This document shows positions 1,711 to 43,006 of a stretch of DNA of 43,555 nt, piece after piece (within the stretch, counting starts at the first letter, position 1; each line of letters opens with the position of its first letter). Below the pieces are notes generated by a model. It was not told where the DNA came from and searched no databases. It saw nothing but the letters and a program-made list of their open reading frames with translations. Made by a program: the position numbers and the translations under genes. Where the stretch lies: IMG/VR virus record IMGVR_UViG_2563366965_000004; one strand, 5' to 3'. This DNA is from a virus. Its lineage: Duplodnaviria; Heunggongvirae; Uroviricota; Caudoviricetes.

Positions 1711-2829
1711 TCAGGCCACGTATTCCGGTTTCATATCCGCCAGGGTGATGCTGAATTGATCGTGCAGTTCATCGCCTAAGTGACGCTTTGAAGATGCAAG
1801 CATGCGCTCGGCTTCAGCGAACCGTTCGGCTGCATGCGGCTCGTCGGGCTGGGGCAGGGATTTAATAGCCTCCTCAACCTTGTTGCGTGCATCCACTAGG
1901 TAATAACGCTTTACGGCTTTGTTTTTCAGCTCGGTGAATAGTGCGGATCCCAGCGTAGCTTTCGCCGTTTCAATGTCGGCACGCAGCGATTTGGCGCTAT
2001 CCACGTCCTGAGCAGATTCGATGCGTTCGCGGAAATCATCGGCAAGAGAGTCGACATTTACCGACGATTCCTGTGCGCTTTGCGTGGTTGTGACGGTGTC
2101 ACCTGAGATATCAGCCAGGCTAACGCGTTGCGGCGTTGGGTTGATCTCTTTTTCTGTGCGCTGTTCAATCTCATCAGGGGTGTACACACCAAGAACAACT
2201 GCAGGGCAATATAGGCGCGCCCAGTATTTGAGTGCCAGATAAGCGATCTGCTGTTTCGGGTTTGATACCCAAAGTGGAGAATTACGTGTGATTACGCTGG
2301 AGAGGAAAACAGGCTCTCCCCAGGTGATATCACTTTCACCGCGAATAACGGCACCTACCCGTACCGACAGTCCTTGTTCATCAGCACTTTCCCAACCGCG
2401 TACCATTTCTTTCTTGTCGTACGTCCCGCCACCTTTCGCAGGCTTTTTAACGGTTATCTCGCGGCTGCTGGCACATTTCGACCAGTCGCCCTCGTACTCA
2501 TAGTGAAAGCGGCCAACGATGGCGTTTGAGCTGGAGATCACCGCATTAACCAGTTGCGCTTCGTATCCCAGGACACCGTTAACCAGGTGCGTCTTTTGCG
2601 CCACGGCGTAAGGGTTCATACCCCACTGCATCGCCTGCATGATGATGGCCATGCAGTCTGCCGGATTGCCGCGGAGGTGCTCAGGCACCGTTACGGCTGC
2701 CTGTGCCATCAACCCGGCGACAGACTGAAGCTGGGTTAAAGCCTGCACGTTGAAAATGGCATTGCTGGCTGAGATCGTGTTTGGAGTCTGCTGTTCAGCG
2801 GTTACGATATTCGTGTTTTCCATCATCAT
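1711..2829 (-). CDS. recT: RecT/Red-beta family single-strand annealing protein
   Basis: 372-aa ORF immediately downstream of the large exonuclease gene (classic recE-recT arrangement); central QWGMNPYA...GVLGYEAQLVNAV segment resembles the RecT/Bet core. Confidence 0.65.
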   Translation of the reverse strand: MMMENTNIVTAEQQTPNTISASNAIFNVQALTQLQSVAGLMAQAAVTVPEHLRGNPADCMAIIMQAMQWGMNPYAVAQKTHLVNGVLGYEAQLVNAVISSSNAIVGRFHYEYEGDWSKCASSREITVKKPAKGGGTYDKKEMVRGWESADEQGLSVRVGAVIRGESDITWGEPVFLSSVITRNSPLWVSNPKQQIAYLALKYWARLYCPAVVLGVYTPDEIEQRTEKEINPTPQRVSLADISGDTVTTTQSAQESSVNVDSLADDFRERIESAQDVDSAKSLRADIETAKATLGSALFTELKNKAVKRYYLVDARNKVEEAIKSLPQPDEPHAAERFAEAERMLASSKRHLGDELHDQFSITLADMKPEYVA

Positions 2830-2834
2830 TCCCC

Positions 2835-5743
2835 TTATGCCTGAGTACGCAGCGCTTCAAGGCGGCGCAGGTCGAAGTCGTTCAGTTCGTCGGTGTAGTC
2901 AGCAGTGATTGGCGCTGGCCATTCACCTGTGTCGAATCCGGTTGCGATATTGCGCATCGCTTTGCGGTACTCGAGCATACCCAGCTCCAGTAGTTCAGCG
3001 GATGCCTCGATGATGGCGATCCAGTGGTAGTTCTCGTCTTTGTTGACGAAAATCCAGAAGAACTGATCCAGCGCTGCGGTTTCGCAGTACATAGCCGCGC
3101 TCAGGTGATAATCACGTTCAATAATTTCCCGGTGTAGCCTGGCGCGCAGGCTTTCCTGCTTAACATTCCACATGCTGATGGTTTTCAGGTCTGCACCTAT
3201 ACGCACGCCATCCAGGTCGATCTCAAGGTCAGGGCGCACACGAACTTCCAAGCCCGTCTCCTCGTCAAAACCAAAGTAGCTCACCTCAACGGCTCGGCTA
3301 GGGTGGGTCAGCAGCATGCCGGCGGTCGGGTGTGCCAGAAGCGCTTTTTGAATATTCAGCGCGGTGCTCAGCTGCTGGCGGGTGACCAGCACTTTTCCTT
3401 CCGGGTTATCGCGCCAGGCATCCAGCAGTTCGTCGGCAAATACGGCATCTGGTTTGACTGCCTTCACGGCCTGGATCATGTCTGCTTTGGTACCGGACAC
3501 TTTCAGTGGTGCCGGTTTCTGAGCTTCCTGAGCCACAAGGTCAGGGTTGATGATTGCCAACTGCTCCAGTAGCGCGTCACGGCTGCCGCTGGTTTTAACC
3601 GGCGGCGGCAGGGTGGCGTTGTACTCTTTAATGCATGCCTTCATTGCCGTCGCCGTCTGCTTCTGGTCACCATCAATACGCTGGAAGTCAGCTGGCAGCG
3701 CCATATAGTTCTGTGCCGTTTCTTCCAGGTTAGCGCCAAGCGGAACCTGCGGCGGCAGGGTGGCGTTGTACTCTTCCAGTAACACCTTGATGTCGTCGGC
3801 AGACAGCAGCGCCGGCAGGCTGGCATTGTGCTCATCGATAAAGGCGCGCAGGGTCGCGGCCGTTGTGAATGCGCCTTCCGGAATTACGGGTTCAACGCTA
3901 AATTCTTCATCGAGCTGTTCTGGCTGCAACGCCAGCGCATGTACCAGGTTTCCCATGTCCAGCACTGAGGAGCGCTCTTTGACGATGGTTTTCTCTACGT
4001 GGCGCGCATTGAAGTACATCAGCGAAACGCGCGCATCTTTTACCTGGGTGGAACTGATGCCGTTGGCAGCGTGGTAAACCTCGTTCGGCAGACCTTCATA
4101 GCGCCCAGGCTCGAAGTAATCGGGGTAAAAAACAGCTTGTTCGTCAGATTGCGCCTCTGGCTCGACGTGTGCCAAAACTGGTTCAGTCTGGTTTACAGAA
4201 TCGCTATTTTGAGCGACAGATTCCGTATTTTGGTTTACATCGGCCTGCTGGCCGGGATGTGACTCTTCACCAGTTTCCAGACTGCTTTCGCCTGACTGCA
4301 TTTCATTACCAACATTTTTTTCATCACTGACAGTTTCTTGAACCTGCACATTGCTGGTGGTTTCCGTAGCCTGTTTCGTGCCATGAGTTGCTGAGTTCTG
4401 CAGTAAAGCCGTAACATCGAATATTCCGTTGCCGACATTTTTAACCAGTTCTTGTTCGGCTTTATGTGGTTGTGCTGTCGCTTCCTCTGCGCGGCGGCGT
4501 GCTTCTTCTTCACGTACGCGTTGCAGGTTCTCTTCGTGAGTGCAGAAGGGTTTGCGTGGAGACTCCTTACTTTCAGGTTGGGGAATTTCCTGTGTTGCGG
4601 GCTCAGCTTCATGCAATGGCAATAACTCAACAGCAGCATTAAACGCAGCAGTCATGGTCCGGTTAACAAACTCCAGGTGAGCGACAGGAGTTAGATGAAT
4701 ATTTTCCGGCGCGATACGTATCAGGTTAAAAATAGCTGTGCGGTTAACGCCAAGAACGCCGGGTTGATTGCGCAGAATGCTGCTCCATGATTTCCACGGT
4801 TCTTCTTTTTTGGTCACGATTTCTTTAGCGCGACGAAGAATGCTGCCCGGGATCTCGAAGTGGTTGAAGTCCATAGGCAGAAGGGCACATGCAATCTCTA
4901 AATCTAGAGTGTCAAGGGTATGGTATGTATCAGGTCCACGGTCAGTGACGTAACCGCCGTTGGCATTGGTTCCGGAATCAGTACGCTGAACACTACTGAT
5001 GTGATTACCGGCAGCCCATTCACGCGCCAGGATGCCACGGTCAATGTAATCAGTAGCCGCCCACATTCTGGTGAAACGGAGTACCAGCGCGAGTTCGTGA
5101 CGCTTGTCCTGGCTGAACACTTTGCGAATGGCATCGGTGTAGCGCCACAGGTCTTTGGTGTCGTAACCCTTCACTTCCGGGCAGTTCTCAGCAGCTAACA
5201 GCAAGTTCTGGACGTAACTGTTATCAGTGTCCATCTCCAGCGCGCCGATAGCTTCGTACTCTTCGCGGGTTACGTGGTGGCGCAGTTCGTCGGCGGTGAA
5301 CTGGGAAAGCAGTTGCTTACGAAACGGCATCTGCACTACCGGGTAGAGGGTTGAGTCGTCGTCGTGTTCGTCCAGCGTGATGCCAGCGGTTTCTGGCAGC
5401 GTTGACTCAGTAGTTATGTGACTATCAACGGTCTGAGCCGTTTTCTCGTCAGAGTTTTCAGCTGTGACTTTTGGCAGCCAGGTGCGGTCATCGTTCTGCA
5501 GTTCGTAGCGTTCGCACCAGGTGTAATCCACTGCGCCTTCTTCCGGCAGGTCGTCATATACCGGGAAATCGGTGCGGATTGGTTTGGCATAATCTTTACC
5601 GCGGCCAGTTTCTTCAATTCCGGCTTCTTCCAGTGCCACATCGAGTTGGAGATTGGCGCGCGCTACACTTTTCGCAGTGAACCAAATCACTGCATCTTTC
5701 TTGCCAGACTTCTGACTGGCTTTTATCAGATGGAAAAATTCCA
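2835..5743 (-). CDS. recE: RecE-like exodeoxyribonuclease VIII
   Basis: Large ORF with a long acidic/low-complexity N-terminal region and a C-terminal nuclease-like domain; likely start is the ATG at 5743 (GAGGA RBS) rather than the track start at 5849. Confidence 0.65.
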
Positions 5744-6262: not shown

Positions 6263-6694
6263 GATGTTCTCCACTATTGCTGAGTGAACTTCGCTGGTGG
6301 TGCCGTGACGCTGATCTTCACAGTTGAGCGTTTTAACTCTGCAATTCACCACCGCGAAGCTCACTTCTGTGTTTGCCCTTGTCGCCAGGCTGGCGGAACG
6401 TTTCAAACCTACTGCGCGTTAATATCACCACCTCATTCCGGTTTTCGTATGCCCCGGACGGCTACTTCGAGGGCTCCATGCCTGGGTGGTTCGTGGTGCG
6501 TCTTGGTGAGTTAGATTAAATCACTGGTTTATATATATGTCAACTTAAGGTTGGTGTTAATTGTAAATCTGAGGTTTATGTGGCTGGGTTTTGTGACACG
6601 TCTGCAGAATCGCAGGCAAAAAAAATCCCGACGCTAAGGTCGAGATCGGGGACTTCGTGGCTGGGTGTTGGCGGCTGAGATGGTGGGTGAGGGT

Positions 6695-6850: not shown

Positions 6851-8155
6851 TTATTGACGATTAAAGTAGTTAGAGTTTAGCTCTTTAGGGAAGTAGTGTT
6901 TACGATTTACCCAAACAAATCCATCAACTTTTGATATCACAGCGACATCAACAGGCCCACCGACAGTTTCATAATCATGTGATACTTTTCTTTTGAATGC
7001 AGTGATGTTCACTAATGATTCGGCCATATACGCAAGATCTGCCTTCCCAAGTGATTGCAACATCGATATCATTTTATTTGTATGGTTATTAACAATATAG
7101 CTTTCAAGTTTAGTATCGTGATCTTGTAAAAGTACGTTTTTGAGTTCCTCAATTTCACTGGAGAAGTGATTGGCTAGTACTCCATTGTTCATTGCAGGGA
7201 AAATATTGCTAGAAACATAATGATTAAGCCGATCAAAAACTTCCTCTGTAAGAGTTCTGTTAAAATTAATGATGTTAGGGTTGCACCCATCAATGAAAGT
7301 TACTACTTCATCTTCTTGAGCAAATGGTATAACAAACCCCATATTGGTTACCTCATTATGGGATTTATCATCAATATTATGGATCATCAATTTGTTTTTA
7401 AAAATGCCGTAGATATGAAGAGTGCAAATGGAAGGGTAATATTCTTCCTCTCCATAACCTGTTATAACAATCCCTGAATATGTACGACTAGCATGGACTT
7501 TGAAAATTAAACAAGTGGAATATAATATGACTTTTTCCATAAGCTCTTGCTGTATATTTTCACAGTTATCAAGAACAATAATTGATGAAATGTATGGCGA
7601 TATTAAATCTTGTATATATGCTAAAGCATCATTAAACTCTTCTGTATCAAACCCTTCGAAAAAGAGATTATTCCTTAAGATTTCTATCTCTAAATCAAAG
7701 GCTTGCTTAACTATGTTTTGAAAAATAACATTGTCGAGTTCAACGGCGGGGTTCATTGTTAAATAGTTTACTACATTATTATCATTAATGTATCTCATCA
7801 AACCTTTGAGGTTATCAACAACAAGGTTTATAACGCAAGCCTCTCTCATTTCATTTGTTATAAGGTCTGAGTTACCATTGATGAATTTTACAAAGTCATT
7901 AACATATTCTTTAATGGTAGGGAAACTAGTTTTCCCCAATTGTTTTCTATAGGATTTAATTATAAGTTCCCACGGTGCGCCACCCAGTGTCGCATTATTA
8001 TAAATCATGATCCCCACGGGATGGTGTTTAGATAGTTCGAATAGTTTTTCCGCACTATTATTTATTTTTACTAATCTATTATGCTCTGTGGTGACTGCAG
8101 AGTCAGCAGCAAGGGCGATTCCAGTATTATTTATTACAACAATCTCAGCTGTCAT
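6851..8155 (-). CDS. Proteasome-beta/HslV-like Ntn-hydrolase fusion protein (434 aa), candidate superinfection-exclusion/defence protein
   Basis: Visibly AT-rich gene; ATG at 8155 (track start 8212 is TTG); N-terminus MTAEIVVINNTGIALAADSAVT matches the HslV/proteasome-beta start ([22 protein letters not shown]) including Thr2 and the Asp; C-terminus GGPVDVAVISKVDGF resembles the beta-subunit GGxVxVxxVxxDG(W/F) motif; about 300 unassigned residues between. Confidence 0.55.
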   Translation of the reverse strand: MTAEIVVINNTGIALAADSAVTTEHNRLVKINNSAEKLFELSKHHPVGIMIYNNATLGGAPWELIIKSYRKQLGKTSFPTIKEYVNDFVKFINGNSDLITNEMREACVINLVVDNLKGLMRYINDNNVVNYLTMNPAVELDNVIFQNIVKQAFDLEIEILRNNLFFEGFDTEEFNDALAYIQDLISPYISSIIVLDNCENIQQELMEKVILYSTCLIFKVHASRTYSGIVITGYGEEEYYPSICTLHIYGIFKNKLMIHNIDDKSHNEVTNMGFVIPFAQEDEVVTFIDGCNPNIINFNRTLTEEVFDRLNHYVSSNIFPAMNNGVLANHFSSEIEELKNVLLQDHDTKLESYIVNNHTNKMISMLQSLGKADLAYMAESLVNITAFKRKVSHDYETVGGPVDVAVISKVDGFVWVNRKHYFPKELNSNYFNRQ

Positions 8156-8297
8156 TGCAAAACATCCCGTGTAGTAGTGATAAATATTAATTAAATTGAT
8201 AGTTTTTTTCAATCTAACATAAATGGCGGAATCACCCCCCCAGTAAAGACATCATTGTCTCATGGGAACTAAAAATTCAGGACAAACCTAAAGCGAT

Positions 8298-8681
8298 TCA
8301 GTCCCCCTGCGAGCGAATCCGCCCCTTCATGTACTTCTCGTACAGCTCATCTAACTCTTTCAGGCGAAGCGCAAAAATGCGGAGCATGTTCTGCTGCTCT
8401 TCTTCCGGTAACTGGCGGTAGAGCTCGAGCAAACGCTGTTCGTCCGGTTTGAGACCGTCTTTCTCTCCAACGTCTTCACCGAGTAGCCAGGCGACAGAAA
8501 TACCAACAGCGTCGGCTATGGCCAGTGCCGATTTCTTACTAATCACGCCTTTTTTGAACCAGCCGTTTACGGCCTGAGGGGTGACTCCAGCTATTCTTGC
8601 CATGTCTGCTTTGGTAACGCCGCGATCAGTGATCTCAGTAAGGCGCTCCACCAGAACGAGGTTGGGTTCTTCTTTTCTCAT
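8298..8681 (-). CDS. Prophage repressor, XRE-family HTH (no S24 peptidase domain)
   Basis: ATG at 8681; 127 aa with HTH (VTKADMARIAGVTPQAVNGWFKKG) and a short coiled C-terminus; divergent from the Cro-like gene; track ORF 8298..8951 is an upstream read-through. Confidence 0.75.
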   Translation of the reverse strand: MRKEEPNLVLVERLTEITDRGVTKADMARIAGVTPQAVNGWFKKGVISKKSALAIADAVGISVAWLLGEDVGEKDGLKPDEQRLLELYRQLPEEEQQNMLRIFALRLKELDELYEKYMKGRIRSQGD

Positions 8682-8783
8682 ATGGTCATTGTAAATATTT
8701 GGTTTATGCACGCAATAAATCCAAAGTTTGCATGAAGTATAAATCTGTGGTTTACTTCTGCTATCAATAAGCAGGAGAAGCAC
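8682..8783. promoter_or_regulatory. Divergent immunity promoter/operator region
   Basis: 102-bp AT-rich spacer between divergent repressor and cro-like starts; repeated TGGTTTA(T/C) motifs (8700-8712 and 8755-8765) are candidate operator half-sites. Confidence 0.4.
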
Positions 8784-9002
8784 ATGTCCGCACTCGATAA
8801 AGCAATTAAAGCCGCTGGCTCTGCCAGAAAGCTCAGCATCGCGCTTGGTGTGACGAGTATGTCTGTAAGTCATTGGAAGAATCGTGACCAAGGGATCGTC
8901 CCGCCAAGCTATATCTTCCCGATTTTCAAAATGACAGGCGTAACCCCCCACGAGCTGCGCCCTGATCTCTATCCAAATCCCACTGACGGATTACCAAAGT
9001 AG
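8784..9002 (+). CDS. Cro-like / YdaS-family HTH regulator
   Basis: 72-aa ORF divergent from the repressor; HTH-like SARKLSIALGVTSMSVSHWKNR. Confidence 0.65.
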   Translation: MSALDKAIKAAGSARKLSIALGVTSMSVSHWKNRDQGIVPPSYIFPIFKMTGVTPHELRPDLYPNPTDGLPK

Positions 9003-9013
9003 GAGCACTGACA

Positions 9014-9571
9014 ATGCAAACACTTTCTTTTCAACAGAATAACAGAGCGCCATCAGAGCACCTGAAATTCCAGTATCAACACAGTGAGGCTGAAGGCCAG
9101 CCGGTCGATCACCGGGCTATCTGTTCTGCCGTCCGCGCCTGGGCGGCGGCAGAGGGCCGCGTGGCGGTCGCTCTGGCGATTAAAGAGGCTGCCGAACAGG
9201 CCGAGCTTGACAGCATTGACATGACCGGCAGCGCCGATGTGTGGAACGTGAAGCTGTTTCGCTGGCTGGACAACCACGAGAAATCACCGGCCTACCGGGC
9301 GAACGTCGAGCAGCTGGCGCCGGTAATAATTTCGGTTCTGCCGCTGGCGTACCGGGATCGCGTGATTAAGCACGACTGCTTTGCGGTTCGTGTCGCCAGG
9401 TCGGTGAAAGAAGACGCTGAGGCGATACAGGCTGTCGTCCTCAAAGCCCCCAGACACGAACGGATGAAGGAAATCAGCGAGAGCATCGTAGCCAAGCTCT
9501 ACCTGGACGGACCTGATTCTGTGGCGCCCATTATGGCGATGGTTACAACGATGCTGGGTGGTGCGCTATGA
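9014..9571 (+). CDS. YdaT-like regulatory protein (CII position)
   Basis: 185 aa directly after the cro-like gene; segment KLFRWLDNHEKSPAYRANVEQLAPVI resembles my recollection of Rac YdaT. Confidence 0.45.
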   Translation: MQTLSFQQNNRAPSEHLKFQYQHSEAEGQPVDHRAICSAVRAWAAAEGRVAVALAIKEAAEQAELDSIDMTGSADVWNVKLFRWLDNHEKSPAYRANVEQLAPVIISVLPLAYRDRVIKHDCFAVRVARSVKEDAEAIQAVVLKAPRHERMKEISESIVAKLYLDGPDSVAPIMAMVTTMLGGAL

Positions 9572-9655
9572 CGGGCTCAGAAATGGCGAAAGCCGCGGTG
9601 CTCGAACACCAACGGCTTTCAGGTGCAAAAACTGTGCGTAATTGCGGAGAACAGT

Positions 9656-10564
9656 ATGTCAAATACCGCTGAAATAATCAATTTCCCAAATAAAACCGAA
9701 CAACCGGGAGGTCGTATGGCCGACCTGTCGAACGGGTATACCAAGGTCGCTAACGAGATCCAACAGCTTAAGCCTCGCCTGAGACTGTCAGGCCGGGAAT
9801 GGCAATGTTTTGAGGCGGTGATCTGGCTTACCTACGGCTGGAACAAGAAACAGGACCGCGTGACAAATACGGTTATTGCCGAGCTTACGGGCCTGAGCGA
9901 TACGCATGTATCGGACGCGCTTAAGTCTCTCGCAGAACGCAAAATCATCTTTTCACAGAAGCAGGGCATGATGAAAATCGTCGGTGTAAACACTGACCTT
10001 TCAGCATGGATTTTAGACAAACCGGAAACGGGAAGAAAATTCCCGAAAACGGGAAAATCCTTCCCGAAATCAGGAATAACCTTCCCGAAAACGGTAGACA
10101 CCCAATACAAGAACAAGAACAGTATTAAAAGATCTTCGTCCGAGAATTCTGACGAATCCTCTGACGCACGTCTGAAGAAATTTTTATCAACTCATCCTGA
10201 AGCTGCGGTCTACACACCATCCGGTGCGAAGTGGGGCTCTGCTGAAGACCTCGAGACAGCTAAGTGGATTTCCTCCAGGGTGAAGCTGATTAACCCAACC
10301 TGCAAAGCCCCGGACATGACCTCCTGGTCTAACACTGTTCGCCTGATGCGCCAGATAGACGACCGGTCGCACCAGGACATCTGCGCGCTGTATGACTGGG
10401 CTAGCAAACACCACTTCTGGCAGACCAACATCCTGAGTCCCGAAAGCCTGCGTAAGCAGTGGGACAAGCTGACAATGCAGCGTAACGCCGGAGGTGAGCA
10501 GCGCGCTGTCAAGCCAGATCTGGACTTCAACAACACTGACTGGGCCTATGGGGTGATCCGATGA
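9656..10564 (+). CDS. Replication initiation protein, lambda O-like replisome organiser
   Basis: N-terminal LSGREWQCFEAVIWLTYGWNKK is the phage replisome-organiser motif; iterons lie inside the gene; ATG 9656 with GGAGAA RBS (track start 9623 is GTG). Confidence 0.75.
   Translation: MSNTAEIINFPNKTEQPGGRMADLSNGYTKVANEIQQLKPRLRLSGREWQCFEAVIWLTYGWNKKQDRVTNTVIAELTGLSDTHVSDALKSLAERKIIFSQKQGMMKIVGVNTDLSAWILDKPETGRKFPKTGKSFPKSGITFPKTVDTQYKNKNSIKRSSSENSDESSDARLKKFLSTHPEAAVYTPSGAKWGSAEDLETAKWISSRVKLINPTCKAPDMTSWSNTVRLMRQIDDRSHQDICALYDWASKHHFWQTNILSPESLRKQWDKLTMQRNAGGEQRAVKPDLDFNNTDWAYGVIR
10019..10095. repeat. Putative replication origin iterons inside the O-like gene
   Basis: TTCCCGAAA repeated at 10040, 10061 and 10082 (21-bp period) plus a degenerate copy at about 10019; encodes the FPKTGKSFPKSGITFPKT peptide repeat, as for ori-lambda within O. 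Confidence 0.6.
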
Positions 10565-11250
10565 AATCTCTTGCAGAGCAGATGCGTAACCACGACCGCG
10601 AGCAGATGAGCCGCATGGCCCATAACCTGCCAGAGCAGTACCAGGAGTGCGCGCCGGTCGAGCAGGTGGCGCAGGTATTCAACAAGCTGTTCAACGAGCT
10701 GCGCGCCGCGTTCCCGGCCAGCATGGCGAACTTCCGCACCCAGGAAGACCTGAACGAATTCCGCCGTCAGTGGCTGCTGGCGTTTCAGGAGAACGGGATC
10801 CACACCATGGCTCAGGTCGATGCCGGCATGCGCATTGCCCGCCGCCAGGAGCGCCCATTCCTGCCGTCGCCGGGCCAGTTCGTCGCCTGGTGCAAGCAGA
10901 GCAGCGGCGCGCTGGGCGTCAACGTTGACCAGGTGATCGCCGAATACTGGGACTGGCGTAACCGCTCGTTCGAATTCATCTCCAGCGAGCAATTTCCATG
11001 GTCGCAGCCGGTCATGTACCACATTTGCGTAGAATTGCGCCACCGCAGCACCGAGCGCCAGTTAACGCATGGTGAACTGGCACGCGAGGCAGGCGATCTG
11101 CTGGACATGTGGGAAAGGCGCGTCACCGAGGGTAAGCCAGTGCCGCCGGTACGCCGGGCTATTGCCGCACCAGCTGCCGAGCAAGGGCCGACGCCGATCC
11201 AGCTGCTGCTGGCCAAGTACAACCGCAACAAGTCGAACGGGATGGTGTGA
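10561..11250 (+). CDS. Replication protein P-like helicase loader
   Basis: Collinear similarity to lambda P as recalled (AEQM.NHDREQM.R.AHN.PEQY...RPFLPSPGQFVAWC); start overlaps the O stop. Confidence 0.85.
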   Translation: MKSLAEQMRNHDREQMSRMAHNLPEQYQECAPVEQVAQVFNKLFNELRAAFPASMANFRTQEDLNEFRRQWLLAFQENGIHTMAQVDAGMRIARRQERPFLPSPGQFVAWCKQSSGALGVNVDQVIAEYWDWRNRSFEFISSEQFPWSQPVMYHICVELRHRSTERQLTHGELAREAGDLLDMWERRVTEGKPVPPVRRAIAAPAAEQGPTPIQLLLAKYNRNKSNGMV

Positions 11251-12990: not shown

Positions 12991-13043
12991 ACTCTTATGG
13001 ATAATTGAACCCTAATTCATTATGAACATAATAAGGAGTCCTT

Positions 13044-13364
13044 ATGTCTTACATAATGCCTGAAAAAGGCCAAATGAATGAATATGGAATTGAGGCTTTC
13101 GGGATCCCGCTTACCAGTAGGCATGGAGTTGCGATGGAACTGTCTCAAATGCTACGTTTTTCTTACTATGTAGCTTCAGTTGGGCTTGTAAAATGTATTG
13201 AAAGTGTCTTCTATGATTCAGGCTCTTGCTGCTGTAATTTTGAATTTATTCCCGGGTTTAATGAGTATTCGGAGGAGGCAGAAAAAATTAGACAGTGCGC
13301 GCTACGTTCGATTGGGCAATTTGAATGGTTCGGTATGATTGAACACGGCGACATCAACGGCTAA
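13044..13364 (+). CDS. Hypothetical accessory protein (106 aa), AT-rich
   Basis: Stands alone with AGGAG RBS and its own terminator; Cys cluster (GSCCCNF); composition differs from flanking phage genes. Confidence 0.5.
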   Translation: MSYIMPEKGQMNEYGIEAFGIPLTSRHGVAMELSQMLRFSYYVASVGLVKCIESVFYDSGSCCCNFEFIPGFNEYSEEAEKIRQCALRSIGQFEWFGMIEHGDING

Positions 13365-13393
13365 GTGTTTAACTCCAATAGCAAACGAATAAA

Positions 13394-13418
13394 AGCCTCT
13401 AAGTTAGAGGTTTTTTAT
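13394..13418 (+). terminator. Rho-independent terminator
   Basis: Hairpin CCTCT-aagtt-AGAGG followed by TTTTTT. Confidence 0.45.
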
Positions 13419-13554
13419 GTCTGAAAGGTAGCATTACCAAGTCTATGGTTGCCTAGCTCAGTCAGGCTTGTATTTGGTTGCTTAGCAATCAACTCATGCG
13501 ACATGAGCGGGATCTTTCTAATTATCATTTTCGGTAAATGATTTTGGTTGCTTG

Positions 13555-13585
13555 GTTGACAAAATCGAGAAAATGCGAAAATATA
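13555..13585 (+). promoter_or_regulatory. Candidate sigma70 promoter for the 13620-15354 cassette
   Basis: Consensus TTGACA at 13555-13560 followed 17-20 bp later by an AT-rich -10-like AAATAT/TATATG region. Confidence 0.3.
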
Positions 13586-13619
13586 TGGTTTACGAATTCC
13601 AAAAAAAGCGAAACTTGAA

Positions 13620-14270
13620 ATGAGCGACAACCAGTTAGCACCTTGTTGGGAATTTCAGCCTTACCTTGCTGAAAGCAATGTTCGTCAGTTGTTAGCGGAA
13701 ATTGCTAATGTACTCGAGCAATTGTACTACCACAAACACACACTGGACAGTAACTGGTCCGAAGGTGTAAGGGCTTATGATTGGGTCAGAAATCATTTGA
13801 TTCAAAGTGAAGGGACACTGCCGGGTCTGGAAATGGTTTCGAAGGGACTGGATTATGTGGTTGCGTTAAATAAAGTGCCGCTGCAGTTCTCCAAAGATTG
13901 CATTAATAACCCGAAGAAGAAGCATCGCCTTCTTCGAAATAGGGTGGAGCATGAGCAACTTTCATTGTTCGGTGAAACTGAAGCCGAGCAAGATATTACA
14001 TGGCGGATCATCGCCGAACCATTTTTATCCGATGAAGAAGATGGCGAGCTGGAATCAACATTGCCTCGCTGGGAAGTGGCTTTAGTTGGGTTTAACGCAT
14101 ATGGTGCCCAGATCAGTATGGTTTCACACCAATCTACTGCTTCAGCGCCGCTTATGTCTCTTGATACCAACACTCTTCCGGATGAAGCTGAGATTGGCAA
14201 AGCCTCTCTTCGCCGCCGTAAAAAAGATCAAGATTTGGATGTGAGCAGTAATGGAACATCAAGTGAATGA
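13620..14270 (+). CDS. Hypothetical protein (216 aa), candidate effector/toxin partner of the ImmA-like protein
   Basis: AT-rich ORF with no motif I recognise; 3' end overlaps the next gene by 20 nt (translational coupling). Confidence 0.55.
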   Translation: MSDNQLAPCWEFQPYLAESNVRQLLAEIANVLEQLYYHKHTLDSNWSEGVRAYDWVRNHLIQSEGTLPGLEMVSKGLDYVVALNKVPLQFSKDCINNPKKKHRLLRNRVEHEQLSLFGETEAEQDITWRIIAEPFLSDEEDGELESTLPRWEVALVGFNAYGAQISMVSHQSTASAPLMSLDTNTLPDEAEIGKASLRRRKKDQDLDVSSNGTSSE

Positions 14271-15354
14271 CTTTGCTGAGTATCGTGGGGATAAGCTCAA
14301 ATTAGCCAGAATGGCTGTTGGGCTCTCCTGCGAAGAGTTAGCGGAGAAAATTGGTAAAACAAAACAATTCGTTAGCAAATTGGAAAAAGGGTTTAAACCA
14401 TCAGAACAGTTGTTAGAATTAATCTCATCTGCGCTGATGATTAAATCTGATTTCCTATTTACTGAACGAAAATATGCTTTAGAAAGCGATGTTTGCCATT
14501 TTCGGAGTAAAAAATCGAGAACCCAAACATTAACCAATAGTGTTCTGGCAAGGGCGGAGATTCTTAACATTATAATCTCTGCCGTTGAGGGAGAAATCGA
14601 GTTTCCTGATGTTTTCATACCTGAGCACCCCGGTGCTGAATTGCTGACTCCAAATGATATTGAACGTGTAGCGGAAGACTGCAGAAGAGCATGGAACTTA
14701 GGGCTGGGACCTATATCCTCAATGGTCAAACTGGCTGAGAGTTTGGGGGTTATTGTTGCTCATGTGACAGGAGTGGATGACCGCGTAGATGCTTTTACTG
14801 TTCATAACAACAGGCCAGTAATCATCCGAAATAACGTCAAAAAGAGTATATGCAGATTCCGATCAGATTTAGGTCACGAATTGGGGCACTTGGTTATGCA
14901 CGAAGGTATAACCACAGGAGATAAAGTGACTGAATCGCAAGCGGATCGTTTTTCAAGCGCGTTGCTAGTTCCTCGATTGTCCTTTATTAAAGAGTTTCCC
15001 CGTATACGAGGAAGACAGTTCGATTGGAACGCCCTAGTTGAGTTTAAGCTTCGGTGGAAGATTAGTCTTAAAATGTGCATTTACCGAGCAACAACTCTAG
15101 GCCTGCTGACGCAGGAGCAGGCAAGAACAGGTTATATGCATTTGAACTCTAAAGGATATACGAAAGTTGAACCAGGAGATGAATTTATTCGCCCGGAAGA
15201 ACCGAGTATGTTAGCTGAGGCGATTGAAATGCTGGATGATGCAACATGGATGAGCATTCTCATGAAAACTGGTTTAAGCCAGGAGTTGGTTAGGGAGTTA
15301 TTCTCGGTAAACCGCCCACTGTCAAATCCAAGAAATCTACTTCAACTGGTTTGA
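14251..15354 (+). CDS. HTH-XRE / ImmA-IrrE family zinc metallopeptidase fusion protein
   Basis: N-terminal HTH (LSCEELAEKIGKTKQFVSKLEKG) and HEXXH zinc-binding motif (HELGHLVMHE) in the COG2856/ImmA-IrrE arrangement; 367 aa. Confidence 0.8.
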   Translation: MEHQVNDFAEYRGDKLKLARMAVGLSCEELAEKIGKTKQFVSKLEKGFKPSEQLLELISSALMIKSDFLFTERKYALESDVCHFRSKKSRTQTLTNSVLARAEILNIIISAVEGEIEFPDVFIPEHPGAELLTPNDIERVAEDCRRAWNLGLGPISSMVKLAESLGVIVAHVTGVDDRVDAFTVHNNRPVIIRNNVKKSICRFRSDLGHELGHLVMHEGITTGDKVTESQADRFSSALLVPRLSFIKEFPRIRGRQFDWNALVEFKLRWKISLKMCIYRATTLGLLTQEQARTGYMHLNSKGYTKVEPGDEFIRPEEPSMLAEAIEMLDDATWMSILMKTGLSQELVRELFSVNRPLSNPRNLLQLV

Positions 15355-15368
15355 CTCAAAGCTTGTAA

Positions 15369-15396
15369 TAAACCCGCTATATGCGGGTTTTTTCTT
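15369..15396 (+). terminator. Rho-independent terminator
   Basis: AACCCGC-tatat-GCGGGTT hairpin followed by a T-run. Confidence 0.6.
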
Positions 15397-15514
15397 TCTG
15401 GTAGCGCGCTGTGGTAACGCTGTGCCTCCAGCGCTCGCTGAGGCGCTGGTGCGTGCTAATTTGCCGGAGCTTTGTCAGCAGAAACAAATAGCGGCGTAAT
15501 AAAACATTGCTAAT

Positions 15515-15545
15515 TCAACCCGCTACGGCGGGTTTTCTTTTTTTA
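15515..15545 (+). terminator. Rho-independent terminator (second of a tandem pair)
   Basis: AACCCGC-tac-GGCGGGTT hairpin followed by TTTTCTTTTTTT. Confidence 0.55.
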
Positions 15546-15606
15546 ATACTGACAGAAAATTAACAATTTGTGCTCTTAAAACGTTGATCATTTCCGTGCA
15601 TAGGTA

Positions 15607-15626
15607 TACTGTATAAAAACACAGTA
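15607..15626. promoter_or_regulatory. LexA (SOS) box
   Basis: TACTGTATAAAAACACAGTA: perfect CTGT-N8-ACAG palindrome, 19 nt upstream of the dinI-like start, overlapping the likely promoter. Confidence 0.7.
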
Positions 15627-15644
15627 CATGCAATGGAGGCTATT

Positions 15645-15878
15645 ATGAAAGTTGAATTAACCATTGATCGCATGAAAGAACTTCCTAAAGGCGCAGTACC
15701 AGCACTGGAGAAAGAACTGCTTAAGCGCCTGAATGATCACTATGACAATTGCAGGCTCACAATCCGCCGTGCCGGGTCCGATGGGTTAAGTGTTTTTGGT
15801 GGTGACAAGGACGATAAAAAGAAAATTGAATCAATCCTCCAGGATACCTGGGAAAGCGCTGACGACTGGTTTTATTAG
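15645..15878 (+). CDS. dinI: DinI-like DNA-damage-inducible protein
   Basis: 77 aa; C-terminus ILQDTWESADDWFY and N-terminal MKVELTID...LPKGAV match E. coli DinI as recalled; GGAGG RBS; track ORF starts 12 nt upstream. Confidence 0.85.
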   Translation: MKVELTIDRMKELPKGAVPALEKELLKRLNDHYDNCRLTIRRAGSDGLSVFGGDKDDKKKIESILQDTWESADDWFY

Positions 15879-15995
15879 AATTGCGCTTAAGGCTGGCGCG
15901 CATTTTTCAGAATACCGCAATTTGCGTAACCCTCTGATGCTGCTGCCGACAATCTTTAATCGCGTCTGTTAGTCGCTCGAAGGGAGAACATAAAT

Positions 15996-16244
15996 GTGAG
16001 TGATTCAGCTTTGCAAACGTCAGAAGACAACTGGTATGACATTGTAAGAAGGTCTGACGGCTGCGTGGTGTTTAGCTTTCCTTCATCGGGCAGGCATCTA
16101 ATTTATCGCGTCAATGGCATGGTTTCTATGCGGCCTTTGCTGGATGATGAAGAGGTCTTTACTCCTAATGGTTTTATGCAATTTATCCGCCGTCTCGGCT
16201 ACCGGGTAACACCACCTTCTGATAATATGAAATCGACGGTCTGA
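15996..16244 (+). CDS. Hypothetical nin-region protein (82 aa)
   Basis: GTG start with AGGGAG RBS 9 nt upstream. Confidence 0.4.
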   Translation: MSDSALQTSEDNWYDIVRRSDGCVVFSFPSSGRHLIYRVNGMVSMRPLLDDEEVFTPNGFMQFIRRLGYRVTPPSDNMKSTV

Positions 16245-16278: not shown

Positions 16279-16878
16279 ATGGCGCACGAACTACAACTCA
16301 TTAAGCAGTCCTCAGGAATTCTGATCCCCGCTACGCCGGAGACCAGCGATATTCTGCAATCAAAAATCAAACTTGGTGCCGTATTGGTAGCCGAATTTCG
16401 TCAGGTGAGGAATCCAGCATTCCATCGCCGTTTCTTTGCGCTCCTGAATCTCGGGTTTGAATACTGGGAACCCACCGGTGGGGCGATTTCTTCCAATGAA
16501 CGTAAATTGGTGACCGGGTACGCTAAATTCCTCGCGGCATTTGGTGGAAACGAAGGCGCACTGCTGGATGCTGCCGAGCAGTATCTGGACCGTATCGCCG
16601 ATAAGCGCGCCGGTAGTATCAGCATCTGCAAATCCTATGACGCATATCGTGCATGGGTGATCATCGAGTCTGGCCACTACGACGCCATACAGCTTCCCGA
16701 CGGCACCCTTCGCAAACACCCCCGCAGCATTGCCTTTGCCAACATGGACGAAACCGAGTTCCAGCAGCTGTACAAAGCCGCGCTCGATGTTCTGTGGCGC
16801 TGGGTATTGTCCCGGGCATTCAAGGACCAGCGTGAAGCGGAAAACGCCGCATCGCAGCTCATGAGCTTTGCGGGGTGA
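16279..16878 (+). CDS. DUF1367-like nin-region protein
   Basis: 199 aa; lambdoid nin-region context; family assignment from memory only. Confidence 0.5.
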   Translation: MAHELQLIKQSSGILIPATPETSDILQSKIKLGAVLVAEFRQVRNPAFHRRFFALLNLGFEYWEPTGGAISSNERKLVTGYAKFLAAFGGNEGALLDAAEQYLDRIADKRAGSISICKSYDAYRAWVIIESGHYDAIQLPDGTLRKHPRSIAFANMDETEFQQLYKAALDVLWRWVLSRAFKDQREAENAASQLMSFAG

Positions 16879-41439: not shown

Positions 41440-41880
41440 ATGAATTACATATATTCCGCGACTACAAACTCTTTCTATCCCTTGGAGATGAAAGAGGATT
41501 ACACGCAAGCTGACTCATGGCCAGATGATGCTGTTGAAGTTGATGAGCAAGTGTATATTGAGTTTTCCGGATTACCGCCGAAAGGAAAAATCCGTATCGC
41601 TGGAGAAAATGGTTTTCCTGCATGGTCTGAAATTCCACCACCATCACATGAGGAACTTATTGAACAGGCCGAATCAGAGAGGCAATTATTGATTAACCAT
41701 GCCAACGAATACATGAACAGTAGGCAATGGTCTGGTAAAGCAGCTATTGGTCGCCTGAAGGGGGACGAGCTGGCGCAATATAATTTGTGGCTGGATTATC
41801 TGGACGCACTGGAACTGGTCGATACTTCCGGGGCGCCAGATATTGAATGGCCTACGCCTCCGGCAGTTCAGGCCAGATGA
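41440..41880 (+). CDS. Tail fibre assembly chaperone (Tfa), currently expressed orientation
   Basis: 146 aa; conserved Tfa C-terminus (LWLDYLDALELVDTSGAPDIEWP). Confidence 0.8.
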   Translation: MNYIYSATTNSFYPLEMKEDYTQADSWPDDAVEVDEQVYIEFSGLPPKGKIRIAGENGFPAWSEIPPPSHEELIEQAESERQLLINHANEYMNSRQWSGKAAIGRLKGDELAQYNLWLDYLDALELVDTSGAPDIEWPTPPAVQAR

Positions 41881-42454
41881 CATCCGGCGCTGTGCTGGTA
41901 TCTGTTGCCGTCACCGCGTCAATGTAATCCAGCACAGTGTTAAGTCGGGTGGTCTCTGCCTGCATCAGCTTCCGCCCGGCCTGCAATTTAAGTTGAATCA
42001 GACTAATGGAAGCCATTGCAGTATTAATCAGTGACTGACGCTGTACTTCTGCCGCGTCTACTGCGGCGCTATGCTGTGCCTCAGTATCGGTCACCCATTT
42101 CTTACCATCCCATTTATCGAATGGCGTTAACGGGGCGATAGTGGTTGTATTTTCAGGATAATCACCCGGAGCTGTGATTTCTTTGGCGTCTCCCGTTTCG
42201 GTTTTATAGACGATTTCACCGCGATGGTCTGGCACATATTCCCATGAGTTTAAATCCATCGAACGGCAGATAGCATAACCCGCCTTATGTATACCAGGTT
42301 CATCCAGACAGGAATATGCAGGGATACCGACACCAATGGCAAGATATTCATTTGAAGTAGAAATATATTCCCGAGTTTTACCATCATAGTTATAGACGGT
42401 AATATTCCCCGCCTTCGTAGCAATAAGCTCGCTATTTAATACGGCGTTATCCAT
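41852..42454 (-). CDS. Alternative tail fibre assembly chaperone (Tfa')
   Basis: 200 aa on the opposite strand; C-terminus (VLDYIDAVTATDTSTAPDVIWP) parallels Tfa; 3' ends of the two tfa genes overlap. Confidence 0.75.
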   Translation of the reverse strand: MDNAVLNSELIATKAGNITVYNYDGKTREYISTSNEYLAIGVGIPAYSCLDEPGIHKAGYAICRSMDLNSWEYVPDHRGEIVYKTETGDAKEITAPGDYPENTTTIAPLTPFDKWDGKKWVTDTEAQHSAAVDAAEVQRQSLINTAMASISLIQLKLQAGRKLMQAETTRLNTVLDYIDAVTATDTSTAPDVIWPELPEA

Positions 42455-42951
42455 TATGCAGCCCTCACGATATAGTTAAATGCAATATTTCGTGGACGGG
42501 TTTCACTCCCGCCAGTATTACCGATACTCCCTCGTTGATGAAGTGTCGGTGATGGGATCAGACTCCCTCCTGTATTTGTGGCATCAAGTCCCCGTCCTTG
42601 TGTGTATGTTTTTTTGAAAATCGTAGCCAGTTCCCATTCATCTTTTGTGTCGTAACCATCATTGGCAACAACAATATGACGGTGCTTTTCCAGCATCCCA
42701 GCCTGAAGGCTCAATAAAGCACGTCCTGCATCAATACCGCGCCCATCATCCCAGCCACGAATAAATTCACCTCGTAAATCAGGCAATTTATTTGTCGGGT
42801 AAGCCTTTGCCAGTTCCGGGTATTCTTCAGCAGAAAAAGCCGCCCCGTTGCATTTCAGCCAGCCTGTTGGAGGTGTCTCTGAAGGCCACGGAACAGGTGC
42901 ACCAACAGGTAATGCTGAACCTTCTCCCAAACCAACCTTTTTTATAACCAT
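42454..42951 (-). CDS. Alternative tail-fibre variable C-terminal segment (promoterless cassette)
   Basis: Opposite-strand ORF whose 5' end carries the inversion site and the same GLGE codons as the expressed fibre; would be fused in frame to the constant region after inversion. Confidence 0.65.
   Translation of the reverse strand: MVIKKVGLGEGSALPVGAPVPWPSETPPTGWLKCNGAAFSAEEYPELAKAYPTNKLPDLRGEFIRGWDDGRGIDAGRALLSLQAGMLEKHRHIVVANDGYDTKDEWELATIFKKTYTQGRGLDATNTGGSLIPSPTLHQRGSIGNTGGSETRPRNIAFNYIVRAA
42921..42947. repeat. Invertase crossover site, right (gix/hix-like)
   Basis: CTTCTCCCAAACC-AA-CCTTTTTTATAA; left half is the exact reverse complement of the left site's right half. Confidence 0.6.
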
Positions 42952-43006
42952 CAAAAATCTGGTGATGCTTCGCCGTTTCTCCTGTTTTCATAACAGGAGA
43001 AATCCC

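Follow-up and report, generated by a model that had tools for sequence, protein, structure and literature searches.

[quoted passage not shown] The antirepressor is able to induce by itself, with stable repressor-antirepressor complexes being formed and the repressor being released from DNA (PMC3121763). Antirepressor specificity is selective, GfoA being active on GfoR and GfhR, two repressors of different immunity, while GtgR is insensitive to it; in addition, the Gifsy-1 prophage of strain LT2 carries the Gifsy-2 module, and GfoA belongs to a different family from GftA (PMC3121763). The circuit was established in Salmonella in 2011, when many E. coli homologues were already predicted (PMC3121763), and the same induction model is used in PMC12626290. 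LexA-repressed antirepressors that bind and inactivate a non-cleavable repressor also include Tum of coliphage 186, AntC of N15 and Ant of the Salmonella phage SPC32H (PMC3121763); these differ from the locus described here in their repressor families and gene positions, and in Tum a DinI-like part is fused to the antirepressor.

The window analysed here is the whole 43,555-nucleotide stretch of the IMG/VR record IMGVR_UViG_2563366965_000004, a prophage of E. coli ET881 that, unlike the Salmonella prophage Gifsy-1, has a contractile-tail virion module and is known from sequence alone. To judge from the features collected in Table 1, it is highly likely that induction of this prophage runs through a circuit in two modules, of the Gifsy-1/Gifsy-3 (GfoR/GfoA) type, and very probable that it requires an SOS-controlled factor whose gene is distant from the immunity region.

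Table 1. Features of the predicted induction circuit and neighbouring genes, in window coordinates
Feature	Position	Strand	Description
Putative left operator cluster	6517..6578	.	two perfect TAAAT-N5-GTTTA sites, 6517-6531 and 6564-6578, 47 bp apart
Prophage repressor, GfoR-type	8298..8681	-	XRE-HTH domain and helical C-terminal module, without S24 domain; 127 aa
Putative right operator cluster, between repressor and cro	8692..8754	.	three 15-bp TAAAT-N5-GTTTA sites, 24 bp spacing
Cro-like regulator (YdaS family)	8784..9002	+	Pfam YdaS_toxin 1.4e-13, phrog_35; divergent from repressor
CII-like / YdaT-family protein	9014..9571	+	Pfam YdaT_toxin 1.5e-17; phrog_163 CII-like activator 3.1e-40
RmrT-like toxin gene of RosmerTA pair	13620..14270	+	PADLOC RmrT 2.4e-26; 20-nt overlap with rmrA
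RmrA (HTH and M78 ImmA/IrrE peptidase), the ImmA-like gene	14251..15354	+	PADLOC RmrA 1.6e-106, residues 11-349
Terminator-like hairpin and T-run	15517..15547	+	hairpin 15517-15534; would insulate the SOS operon from upstream transcription
Candidate LexA box TACTGTATAAAAACACAGTA	15607..15626	+	17/20 against the consensus TACTGTATATATATACAGTA
dinI homologue, operon gene 1	15645..15878	+	Pfam DinI 8.9e-26; PGAP start, GGAGG Shine-Dalgarno; 77 aa
Weak terminator-like hairpin between dinI and antirepressor gene	15882..15900	+	6 pairs, interrupted T-run
GfoA-type antirepressor gene, candidate	15996..16244	+	82 aa, GTG start, AAGGGAG Shine-Dalgarno; annotated as hypothetical
irsA / DUF1367 (NinB-like) homologue, operon gene 3	16279..16878	+	Pfam DUF1367 2.5e-91; irsA primer 33/35 nt

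The repressor is read from an ATG at 8681 to a stop at 8298, while PGAP places its start at an upstream GTG (8711), giving 137 aa. It had been described in the original prediction as a short XRE-HTH protein with a helical C-terminus and no S24 domain, in which RecA-stimulated self-cleavage is unlikely, and this description was borne out. The Pfam profile search returned HTH families alone (HTH_3, 1.5e-6), and Peptidase_S24 (PF00717), the domain for which such a search had been proposed, was not found at E<=10 in the whole protein or in its C-terminal 61 aa searched separately. Among the best 120 of 945 homologues, all are 123-197 aa long with PF01381 as their only domain. In the AlphaFold2 model (pLDDT 84) a five-helix HTH domain (residues 8-66) is joined through a low-confidence linker (67-78) to two helices at the C-terminus (79-89 and 93-126), and a beta-rich peptidase domain is absent from the model. 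The single Ala-Gly dipeptide (residues 31-32) falls within the HTH, and the protein has no Ala-Gly cleavage site or Ser/Lys motifs of the CI/LexA type. It shares the N-terminal HTH fold with lambda CI, P22 C2 and LexA, and with lambda CI and P22 C2 also the divergent repressor/cro arrangement and the repeated operators, but its C-terminus consists of two helices where those proteins have an S24 domain; it cannot be a self-cleaving protein of the CI/LexA type. The Foldseek matches of the model (SinR, P22 C2, 434, DdrO and 5d4z) are generic HTH folds with E>0.001, and the fold therefore cannot separate protease-targeted from antirepressor-targeted repressors; the entry 5d4z is deposited under the title 'Repressor from Salmonella-temperate phage', which we take to be the repressor of Salmonella phage SPC32H. 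Matches to polyubiquitin in the PDB sequence search were set aside as a repeat artefact, no single stretch passing.

The repressor gene has the position expected of a prophage repressor, with cro-like (YdaS) and cII-like (YdaT) genes diverging from it. The motif TAAAT-N5-GTTTA is matched 12 times in the window, where 1.8 matches would be expected, and its four perfect copies all lie within two clusters, which we regard as putative operators; the sites of the right cluster are at 8692-8706, 8716-8730 (one mismatch) and 8740-8754, and a consensus scan there found no sigma-70 promoter. The immunity region of a viral contig of the Gifsy-1(14028) type has TAAAC-N5-GTTTA pairs laid out as in the window, with similar operator arms and spacing, and recE and recT stand in the left operon in both. 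That contig (IMG/VR contig L011) exactly matches five of the published primers of the ATCC14028 gfoA and gfoR set (Table S1 of PMC3121763), and so served as the source of full-length GfoA and GfoR sequences; full-length ATCC14028 GfoR, which is not among the best 120 of the 945 repressor matches, was recovered through this primer scan of viral contigs. The window repressor is a homologue of GfoR with 76 of 127 residues identical (about 60%), and the identity is higher in the C-terminal half (74%) than in the HTH half (46%); the gfoR 3' primer matches the window in 26/28 nt at 8314-8341. Given the divergence of the HTH half and an operator arm of TAAAT rather than TAAAC, the immunity is probably different from that of Gifsy-1. 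The immunity block of the window also differs from Gifsy-1 in having an unrelated 453-aa gene.

The second predicted module is an operon headed by dinI. The LexA-box-preceded dinI-like gene proposed earlier (15607-15878) is real, with TACTGTATAAAAACACAGTA directly 5' of it and a terminator-like palindrome further upstream, the same arrangement as in the Gifsy prophages (PMC3121763). The box agrees in 19/20 positions with that contained in the published Gifsy-1 primer. An alternative upstream ATG at 15633 would lengthen DinI to 81 aa. The consensus scan gave no sigma-70 promoter at the LexA box either, and one proposed by eye, TTGATC-15 nt-TATACT, has a short spacer; the weak hairpin after dinI is possibly an attenuator. 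Two more perfect CTGT-N8-ACAG sites, at 7550 and 14798, both within coding sequence, are probably non-functional, and the retention of the second in an 80%-identical rmrA allele is explained by conservation of the peptide TVHNNR there.

Between dinI and the irsA/DUF1367 gene, downstream of the LexA box, lies the 82-aa ORF that is likely to be the inducer of the prophage, as its homology and position suggest. It is identical in 77 of 82 residues (94%) to the GfoA of the Gifsy-1(14028)-type contig, and the published gfoA primers match the window in 20/21 nt (5') and 36/37 nt (3'), the last three bases of the 3' primer differing from the window; the irsA primer matches in 33/35 nt. As in the GfoR/GfoA system, whose lambdoid GfoR/GfhR-like repressors are of about 130-150 aa, a short repressor that lacks a cleavage domain and has a conserved C-terminal module is accompanied by a small non-AUG ORF of the GfoA/GfhA family, located outside the immunity region in the dinI-irsA interval, with a terminator and a LexA box ahead of dinI. 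The original prediction had suggested looking in the rest of the prophage for an antirepressor under LexA control, and this ORF, which it did not itself list, is the candidate so obtained; no further antirepressor-type or S24 protein appears in the PGAP annotation of the complete prophage. Searches of Pfam, NCBIfam and PADLOC gave no match to the ORF, the PDB sequence search returned nothing, and in PHROGs it falls in the unnamed families 340 and 1813 only. Its structure model is of moderate confidence (pLDDT 69.5), and as Foldseek gives no match to it at E<=0.001, the model is silent on mechanism.

The circuit also resembles GtgR/GftA (Gifsy-2 and LT2 Gifsy-1) in its logic and in the dinI-antirepressor-irsA synteny, and the repressor resembles GtgR in architecture and in the C-terminal motif 'LL.L..QLPE.E' (26% identity, E 3e-7). 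The antirepressors differ, since GftA belongs to phrog_4847 and the window ORF to phrog_340, with no detectable similarity between them. BLASTP of the ORF against GftA, the LT2 Gifsy-1 protein in the equivalent position, accordingly gave no match; this null result, at first sight a failed test of membership, does not count as one, LT2 Gifsy-1 having the Gifsy-2 module and GfoA being of another family.

An alternative within the same operon gives the role of SOS-controlled factor to the DinI-like protein, which would itself inactivate the repressor or trigger induction in some other way, as could be thought from the place of dinI at the head of the operon, next to the LexA box, and from the DinI-like half of the phage 186 antirepressor Tum (PMC3121763). 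Non-polar dinI deletions in Gifsy-1 and Gifsy-3, however, brought no significant change in induction, and nested deletions in Gifsy-2 placed the inducing activity between dinI and irsA, where the small ORF alone was sufficient (PMC3121763). With a GfoA-like ORF in the corresponding interval of the window, DinI is by analogy probably not the inducer, and we hold such a role for it to be extremely unlikely. The antirepressor candidate is the preferred factor also in view of its conservation. The LexA box, the gene order and the non-AUG start are kept in 13 loci spread over four genera (E. coli, Salmonella, Klebsiella and Citrobacter), the box matching in 17-18/20 positions and standing 18-19 nt 5' of the common start codon of dinI (77-aa form). 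The order of terminator, LexA box, dinI and small non-AUG ORF, then DUF1367 where annotated, is found in mEp237, SEN34, PHB10, SPN3UB and two annotated Klebsiella phages, and likewise in the Gifsy-1 contigs and the NCTC13148 prophage; Chris1 shares it as far as the small ORF and has no annotated DUF1367 gene. Among 50,697 phage records, of which only 39 have a repressor homologue, 15 have a homologue of the small ORF, and 13 of these 15 have the repressor homologue as well.

The pairing of the two proteins requires a closer look, as identity between the repressor and GfoR is only about 60% and antirepressors are selective, so that the pairing is to be read from the conservation of the C-terminal half and from co-occurrence. 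The two modules are shuffled among relatives: PHB10 has a repressor 97% and an antirepressor 67% identical to those of the window, and mEp237 has 74% and 99%. Such shuffling could speak for a prophage that is not SOS-inducible via this module, for example through a mismatch of antirepressor and repressor, with induction left to the antirepressor of a co-resident prophage, to another signal or to spontaneous switching. We consider this quite unlikely, because GfoA acts on both GfoR and GfhR across different immunities (PMC3121763), because the C-terminal half of the window repressor is 74-96% identical to the repressors that accompany this antirepressor family, and because the prophage appears complete, from the integrase through the tail fibres.

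Elements that combine an XRE-HTH repressor with an M78/COG2856 metallopeptidase, as the window does, include ImmR/ImmA (ICEBs1, phi105) and DdrO/IrrE. In ICEBs1 the protease gene adjoins, and is co-transcribed with, the repressor that the protease cleaves. The original prediction had proposed that induction depends on a distant ImmA-like protease or on an SOS-controlled factor, and had raised the ImmA/IrrE-like product of 14251-15354 as a possible prophage anti-repressor, which would cleave the XRE repressor as in these systems. The metallopeptidase gene is genuine, with HTH_3 and Peptidase_M78 (1.3e-10) domains in Pfam; the repressor is generally like ImmR and DdrO in shape, and DdrO is among its weak, unspecific fold matches (E about 0.1). 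Moreover, a Qin-like lambdoid prophage (STEC346) that has a short repressor, and no dinI-antirepressor module nearby, carries in its nin region an rmrTA allele with 80% identity.

The identity of this protein speaks against such cleavage. It matches RmrA over its full length (1.6e-106), overlaps the gene of an RmrT-like toxin by 20 nt, and also resembles the NCBIfam spr1629 repressor/antitoxin family (6.8e-46, short of the model cut-off). Experiments have validated RosmerTA as a defence and toxin-antitoxin system in which RmrA is the antitoxin, and the HTH fused to RmrA has been suggested as its own regulatory or cleavage target (Millman et al. 2022; Ernits et al. 2023, PMC10440598). The window pair is like the known RosmerTA systems in being toxin-first and overlapping, with an HTH and ImmA-type Zn-peptidase antitoxin and the adjoining RmrT toxin gene in the same operon, and differs from them, as studied, in being accessory prophage cargo predicted from sequence. 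Whereas in ImmR/ImmA and DdrO/IrrE the protease gene is adjacent to that of its substrate repressor and co-transcribed with it, the window peptidase is HTH-fused and toxin-paired, and lies 5.5 kb from the repressor on the opposite strand, in a block of its own with a GC content of 40-46% against 51-62% in the flanks; this block, inserted directly upstream of the SOS operon, is a further difference from Gifsy-1. Nor is the gene conserved with the repressor family: rmrA is absent from mEp237 (which has a methylase in place of the block), SEN34 and the NCTC13148 prophage, three relatives that have retained both the repressor family and the dinI-antirepressor module, and an RmrA homologue occurs in none of the 13 phage records with both repressor and antirepressor homologues, while those found in phages are scattered (Gordonia, Clostridioides, Acinetobacter and others). 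In E. coli genomes the pair is present in 237, always with rmrT and rmrA together (237/237), as against only 29 with the repressor allele. Going by its domains and genomic context, the ImmA-like gene supplies the antitoxin to an accessory RosmerTA defence pair and has no part in the induction circuit, and cleavage of the repressor by its product as the route to induction is very unlikely. The earlier proposal of a distant factor therefore stands for its SOS-controlled half, in the form of the 82-aa ORF, and falls for the protease.

The circuit that we propose would operate as follows. In the immunity region, the 127-aa repressor would keep the early operons off from flanking TAAAT-N5-GTTTA operators. 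Some 7 kb away, in the nin region, the operon of dinI, the 82-aa antirepressor gene and irsA/DUF1367 would be insulated by the terminator ahead of it, with host LexA repressing it from the box just upstream of dinI. DNA damage would activate RecA and lead to the self-cleavage of LexA, and the operon would then be transcribed. The small GTG-start protein would accumulate and bind the repressor dimer, perhaps in an A2B2 complex such as the Gifsy pair suggests and presumably via the C-terminal module, which repressors of different immunity have conserved, and the uncut repressor would leave the DNA, turning on the lytic genes. For the window phage we infer LexA control, antirepressor binding and the absence of cleavage by analogy with the Salmonella experiments.

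This circuit carries little conceptual novelty, and the practical value of its recognition lies in the annotation of the inducing gene, since a gene that RefSeq and phage records alike give as 'hypothetical protein', and for which Pfam, NCBIfam and the named PHROGs offer no family, leaves readers to turn to its named neighbours, dinI and ImmA/IrrE. A recognised repressor-antirepressor pair predicts that the prophage would be induced by SOS-inducing antibiotics, and that induction would be reversible and subject to cross-talk with other prophages; it also lets the ImmA-like gene be assigned correctly to RosmerTA defence cargo. A second role of RmrA beside the neutralisation of RmrT, in which its M78 peptidase could cleave short repressors of the GfoR/DicA type, its own prophage's or those of co-resident prophages, would be compatible with the STEC346 allele and with phage Tritos, where an RmrA homologue accompanies a weakly similar, CI-annotated repressor. 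This role is hardly probable, but if it were true, such cleavage would provide lambdoid prophages with rmrTA in the nin region with a LexA-independent route of induction or escape, for example upon superinfection.

This E. coli locus belongs to the Gifsy GfoR/GfoA type of repressor-antirepressor system, with an unrelated RosmerTA pair aboard. Its repressor had been described as a short XRE-HTH protein whose C-terminus is helical and which lacks a self-cleavage domain, and this is confirmed, since Pfam, a homologue search and an AlphaFold2 model agree. Pfam finds helix-turn-helix families only (HTH_3, 1.5e-6; Phage_CI_repr, 8e-4), and the S24 profile search named in the original prediction returned no Peptidase_S24 even at E<=10, in the whole protein or in its last 61 residues searched separately. 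A search of 5.8 billion proteins found 945 homologues, the best 120 of which are 123-197 aa long with PF01381 as sole domain. The model (mean pLDDT 84) comprises a five-helix HTH domain (residues 8-66), a low-confidence linker (67-78) and a C-terminal part of two helices (79-89 and 93-126). RefSeq (PGAP) has an alternative start, a GTG 30 nt upstream of the ATG, which gives a 137-aa repressor. Structure matches to the model are generic HTH proteins only, all at E>0.001; they include two antirepressor-bound repressors, SinR and 5d4z (whose deposited title is that of a Salmonella temperate-phage repressor), and a protease-cleaved one, DdrO, so that structure does not separate the rival inducers. 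The repressor halves recombine independently: in a half-by-half comparison of the window repressor (8298-8681) with P0103, P0120 and L019, the E. coli protein P0103 is 100% identical at residues 1-70 and 84% at 71-127, and the NCTC13148 repressor 73% and 96%, respectively. Shuffling thus appears to move the DNA-binding module and the C-terminal module each as a unit.

The window matches the E. coli ET881 chromosome at 100% identity and spans an apparently complete prophage, with integrase, recE/recT, replication genes, Q, lysis genes and a head and contractile-tail module along its length; a lambdoid early region is here joined with a contractile-tail virion module. At the far prophage end (~41500-43300), a Hin/Gin-like "recombinase family protein" adjoins oppositely oriented tail-fibre and tail-fibre-assembly genes, an arrangement that points to an invertible host-range segment. 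Three copies of a 15-bp motif, TAAAT-N5-GTTTA, lie in the 100-bp repressor-cro spacer, at 8692, 8716 (one mismatch) and 8740 with a spacing of 24 bp, and two more lie 2.2 kb leftward, at 6517 and 6564. With 1.8 matches expected, the window holds 12, and its four perfect copies all fall in the two clusters, which are arranged like the right and left operators of lambdoid phages around the immunity block and are putative operators. Between them lies a 453-aa gene (31-35% GC), in the position occupied by rexAB in lambda; it matches phrog_5990 (function unknown) and nothing in Pfam, NCBIfam or PADLOC, its homologue is present in the NCTC13148 prophage and absent from mEp237 and SEN34, and it is a candidate exclusion or defence gene encoded by the prophage. 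A good LexA-like site, TGCTGTATATTTTCACAGTT at 7548-7567, lies within its coding sequence, in an AT-rich region, and may be chance.

Features of the immunity region, the RosmerTA insertion and the SOS module
Feature	Position	Strand	Remarks
453-aa gene	6851-8212 (PGAP start 8254)	-	directly downstream of repressor, between operator clusters
Repressor ORF, 127 aa	8298-8681	-	ATG at 8681
cro-like YdaS gene	8784-9002	+	divergent from repressor gene
cII-like YdaT gene	9014-9571	+	downstream of YdaS gene; divergent from repressor gene
106-aa ORF	13044-13364		in low-GC insertion, upstream of rmrTA; unknown function
rmrT	13620-14270	+	20-nt overlap with rmrA
rmrA	14251-15354	+	
Terminator-like hairpin	15370-15390		part of low-GC insertion
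Terminator-like hairpin	15517-15534		part of low-GC insertion; upstream of LexA box
LexA box TACTGTATAAAAACACAGTA, putative	15607-15626		17/20 positions of LexA consensus
Weak hairpin	15882-15900	+	between dinI and small ORF
Small ORF, 82 aa	15996-16244	+	GTG start nine bases after AAGGGAG Shine-Dalgarno sequence
DUF1367/NinB-like gene	16279-16878	+	next after small ORF

A LexA-controlled antirepressor elsewhere in the prophage had been proposed as a target for search, and a probable one was found in the small ORF, a GfoA homologue behind the putative LexA box of dinI. The box sits 18 nt before the dinI ATG at 15645, and a 117-nt spacer separates dinI from the small ORF. No consensus promoter turned up at the box in a simple scan, and TTGATC-15 nt-TATACT, which overlaps it, is only a reading of one. 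The GTG start is embedded in ATGTGA (15994-15999), an overlapping one-codon ATG-stop mini-ORF; the Salmonella allele has TTG. The structure model of the small ORF has four strands and one helix (pLDDT 69.5), and a structure search found no structural relative.

The LexA-regulated operon of the Gifsy prophages has the order dinI, antirepressor gene, irsA (PMC3121763), which the window shares as dinI, small ORF and irsA-like (DUF1367) gene. Mapping placed gftA, the antirepressor gene of Gifsy-2, between dinI and irsA; its start codon is GUG, and in Gifsy-1 and Gifsy-3 the counterpart small ORFs likewise begin with a codon other than AUG (PMC3121763). DinI itself, one of the inducers originally named, is unlikely to be the inducing factor, as non-polar deletions of dinI, like those of irsA, left induction of Gifsy-1 and Gifsy-3 unaltered (PMC3121763). 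A first comparison of the small ORF with the LT2 Gifsy-1 protein at the equivalent position gave no match, because LT2 Gifsy-1 carries the Gifsy-2 module GtgR/GftA and not GfoR/GfoA, which belong to Gifsy-1 of ATCC14028 and have only a distant relationship to GtgR and GftA (PMC3121763). The published primer table (PMC3121763), which contains end sequences of gfoA, gfoR and irsA as well as the Gifsy-1 LexA box, was compared with the window, and agreement reached 20/21 nt (gfoA 5' end), 36/37 nt (gfoA 3' end), 26/28 nt (gfoR 3' end), 33/35 nt (irsA) and 19/20 nt (LexA box). Among viral contigs scanned with the gfoR primer, L011 holds five published primers exactly and is therefore a Gifsy-1(14028)-type element; its GfoA (82 aa, TTG start) is identical to the small ORF at 77/82 residues and its GfoR (131 aa) to the window repressor at 76/127. 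The two repressor halves differ in this identity, the HTH half reaching 46% and the C-terminal half 74% (DGLK..RLLELYRQLP..LRLKELD..YEKYMKGRIR), and the mEp237, SEN34 and NCTC13148 prophage repressors show the same pattern. The immunity block of L011 has TAAAC-N5-GTTTA pairs at both ends, 46-47 bp apart, an architecture that it shares with the window.

Every annotated phage that has a small ORF homologue has it behind dinI (mEp237, SEN34, PHB10, two Klebsiella phages, Citrobacter phage Chris1 and SPN3UB), followed by a DUF1367 gene in all but Chris1, where none is annotated; the unannotated Kp4865-4 locus likewise has LexA box, dinI and small ORF. In 13 loci the box (17-18/20 consensus) stands 18-19 nt before the shared start codon of dinI (77-aa form), and the antirepressor begins with GTG or TTG in 10/10 loci examined. 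Among 50,697 phage records, 15 have the small ORF, 39 a repressor homologue and 13 both (~0.01 by chance). The pairing is not allele-specific, since PHB10 combines a repressor 97% identical to that of the window with a 67% identical antirepressor, and mEp237 a 74% with a 99% identical one. This fits the published action of GfoA and GfhA, each on both GfoR and GfhR, though the immunities of the two repressors differ (PMC3121763). In general terms, the idea that a trans-acting factor under SOS control is involved is correct; the two candidates named at the outset, dinI and an ImmA-like protease, are not the best ones.

For the ImmA-like gene, the predicted protease character stands, as Pfam finds HTH_3 and Peptidase_M78, but its anti-repressor role is not supported: the protein is a full-length match to PADLOC RmrA models (1.6e-106), and the overlapping upstream gene matches RmrT (2.4e-26). 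The closest NCBIfam model, "spr1629 family repressor/antitoxin" (6.8e-46), is under its cut-off. RosmerTA is a toxin-antitoxin defence system whose antitoxin is the Zn-peptidase protein (bioRxiv 10.1101/2022.05.11.491447; PMC10440598). The block 13000-15500 has 40-46% GC against 51-62% in neighbouring phage genes and ends at a DNA methyltransferase remnant (pseudogene, ~15401-15499) where mEp237 has an intact methylase gene. No rmrTA is present in mEp237, SEN34 or the NCTC13148 prophage, all of which retain the repressor family, the replication genes and the dinI region. In the phage collection, homologues of RmrA have a scattered distribution over Gordonia, Clostridioides, Paenibacillus, Acinetobacter and other hosts, and none occurs in the records of that collection having both repressor and small ORF homologues; in 5,426 complete E. 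coli genomes, rmrTA is found in 237, always with both genes, and the repressor allele in 29. As GC content, absence from relatives, phage scatter and E. coli distribution all separate rmrTA from the repressor, it fits accessory defence cargo rather than a dedicated anti-repressor. The idea that RmrA inactivates the repressor is formally alive through a Qin-like prophage of STEC346 (L022), which has an 80%-identical rmrTA in its nin region and a short repressor of similar overall architecture, with neither dinI nor a LexA module inside 9 kb. In this Qin/DicB-like element the pair (9020-10754) adjoins hokD, and the 140-aa repressor (4303-4722) has the C-terminal motif L.LL..LPE.E of the window repressor. 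A CTGT-N8-ACAG site inside rmrA (14796-14815), also present in the 80%-identical STEC346 allele (L022 10196-10215), is probably no functional LexA box, as it encodes the conserved TVHNNR, varies only by synonymous changes in its spacer and has no AT-rich core; its retention is due to coding constraint.

By homology with the Salmonella experiments (PMC3121763; restated in PMC12626290), LexA would keep the dinI-antirepressor-irsA operon off until DNA damage led to LexA self-cleavage; the 82-aa protein would then accumulate and form a stable complex with the repressor dimer, which would depart its operators uncleaved. Gifsy repressor-antirepressor complexes behaved as A2B2 (PMC3121763). Domain content, homology, synteny, LexA box conservation and co-occurrence are the observed part of this mechanism; that LexA binds, that the operon is transcribed, that the complex forms and that the repressor stays uncleaved is, for this phage, inferred. 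Given the conservation pattern of the repressor, the antirepressor may dock on its conserved C-terminal module, and the conserved non-AUG starts may keep the basal antirepressor level low. Both protein families are widespread in Enterobacteriaceae, and among the complete E. coli genomes the dinI-antirepressor allele is present in 52. In a prophage of E. coli 2022CK-00450 (L021), the replication-rmrTA-dinI-antirepressor region is identical to that of the window and the repressor (2731-3126) is different, with a far closer resemblance to Salmonella GfoR; this is a clean case of an immunity region replaced beside a constant SOS module.
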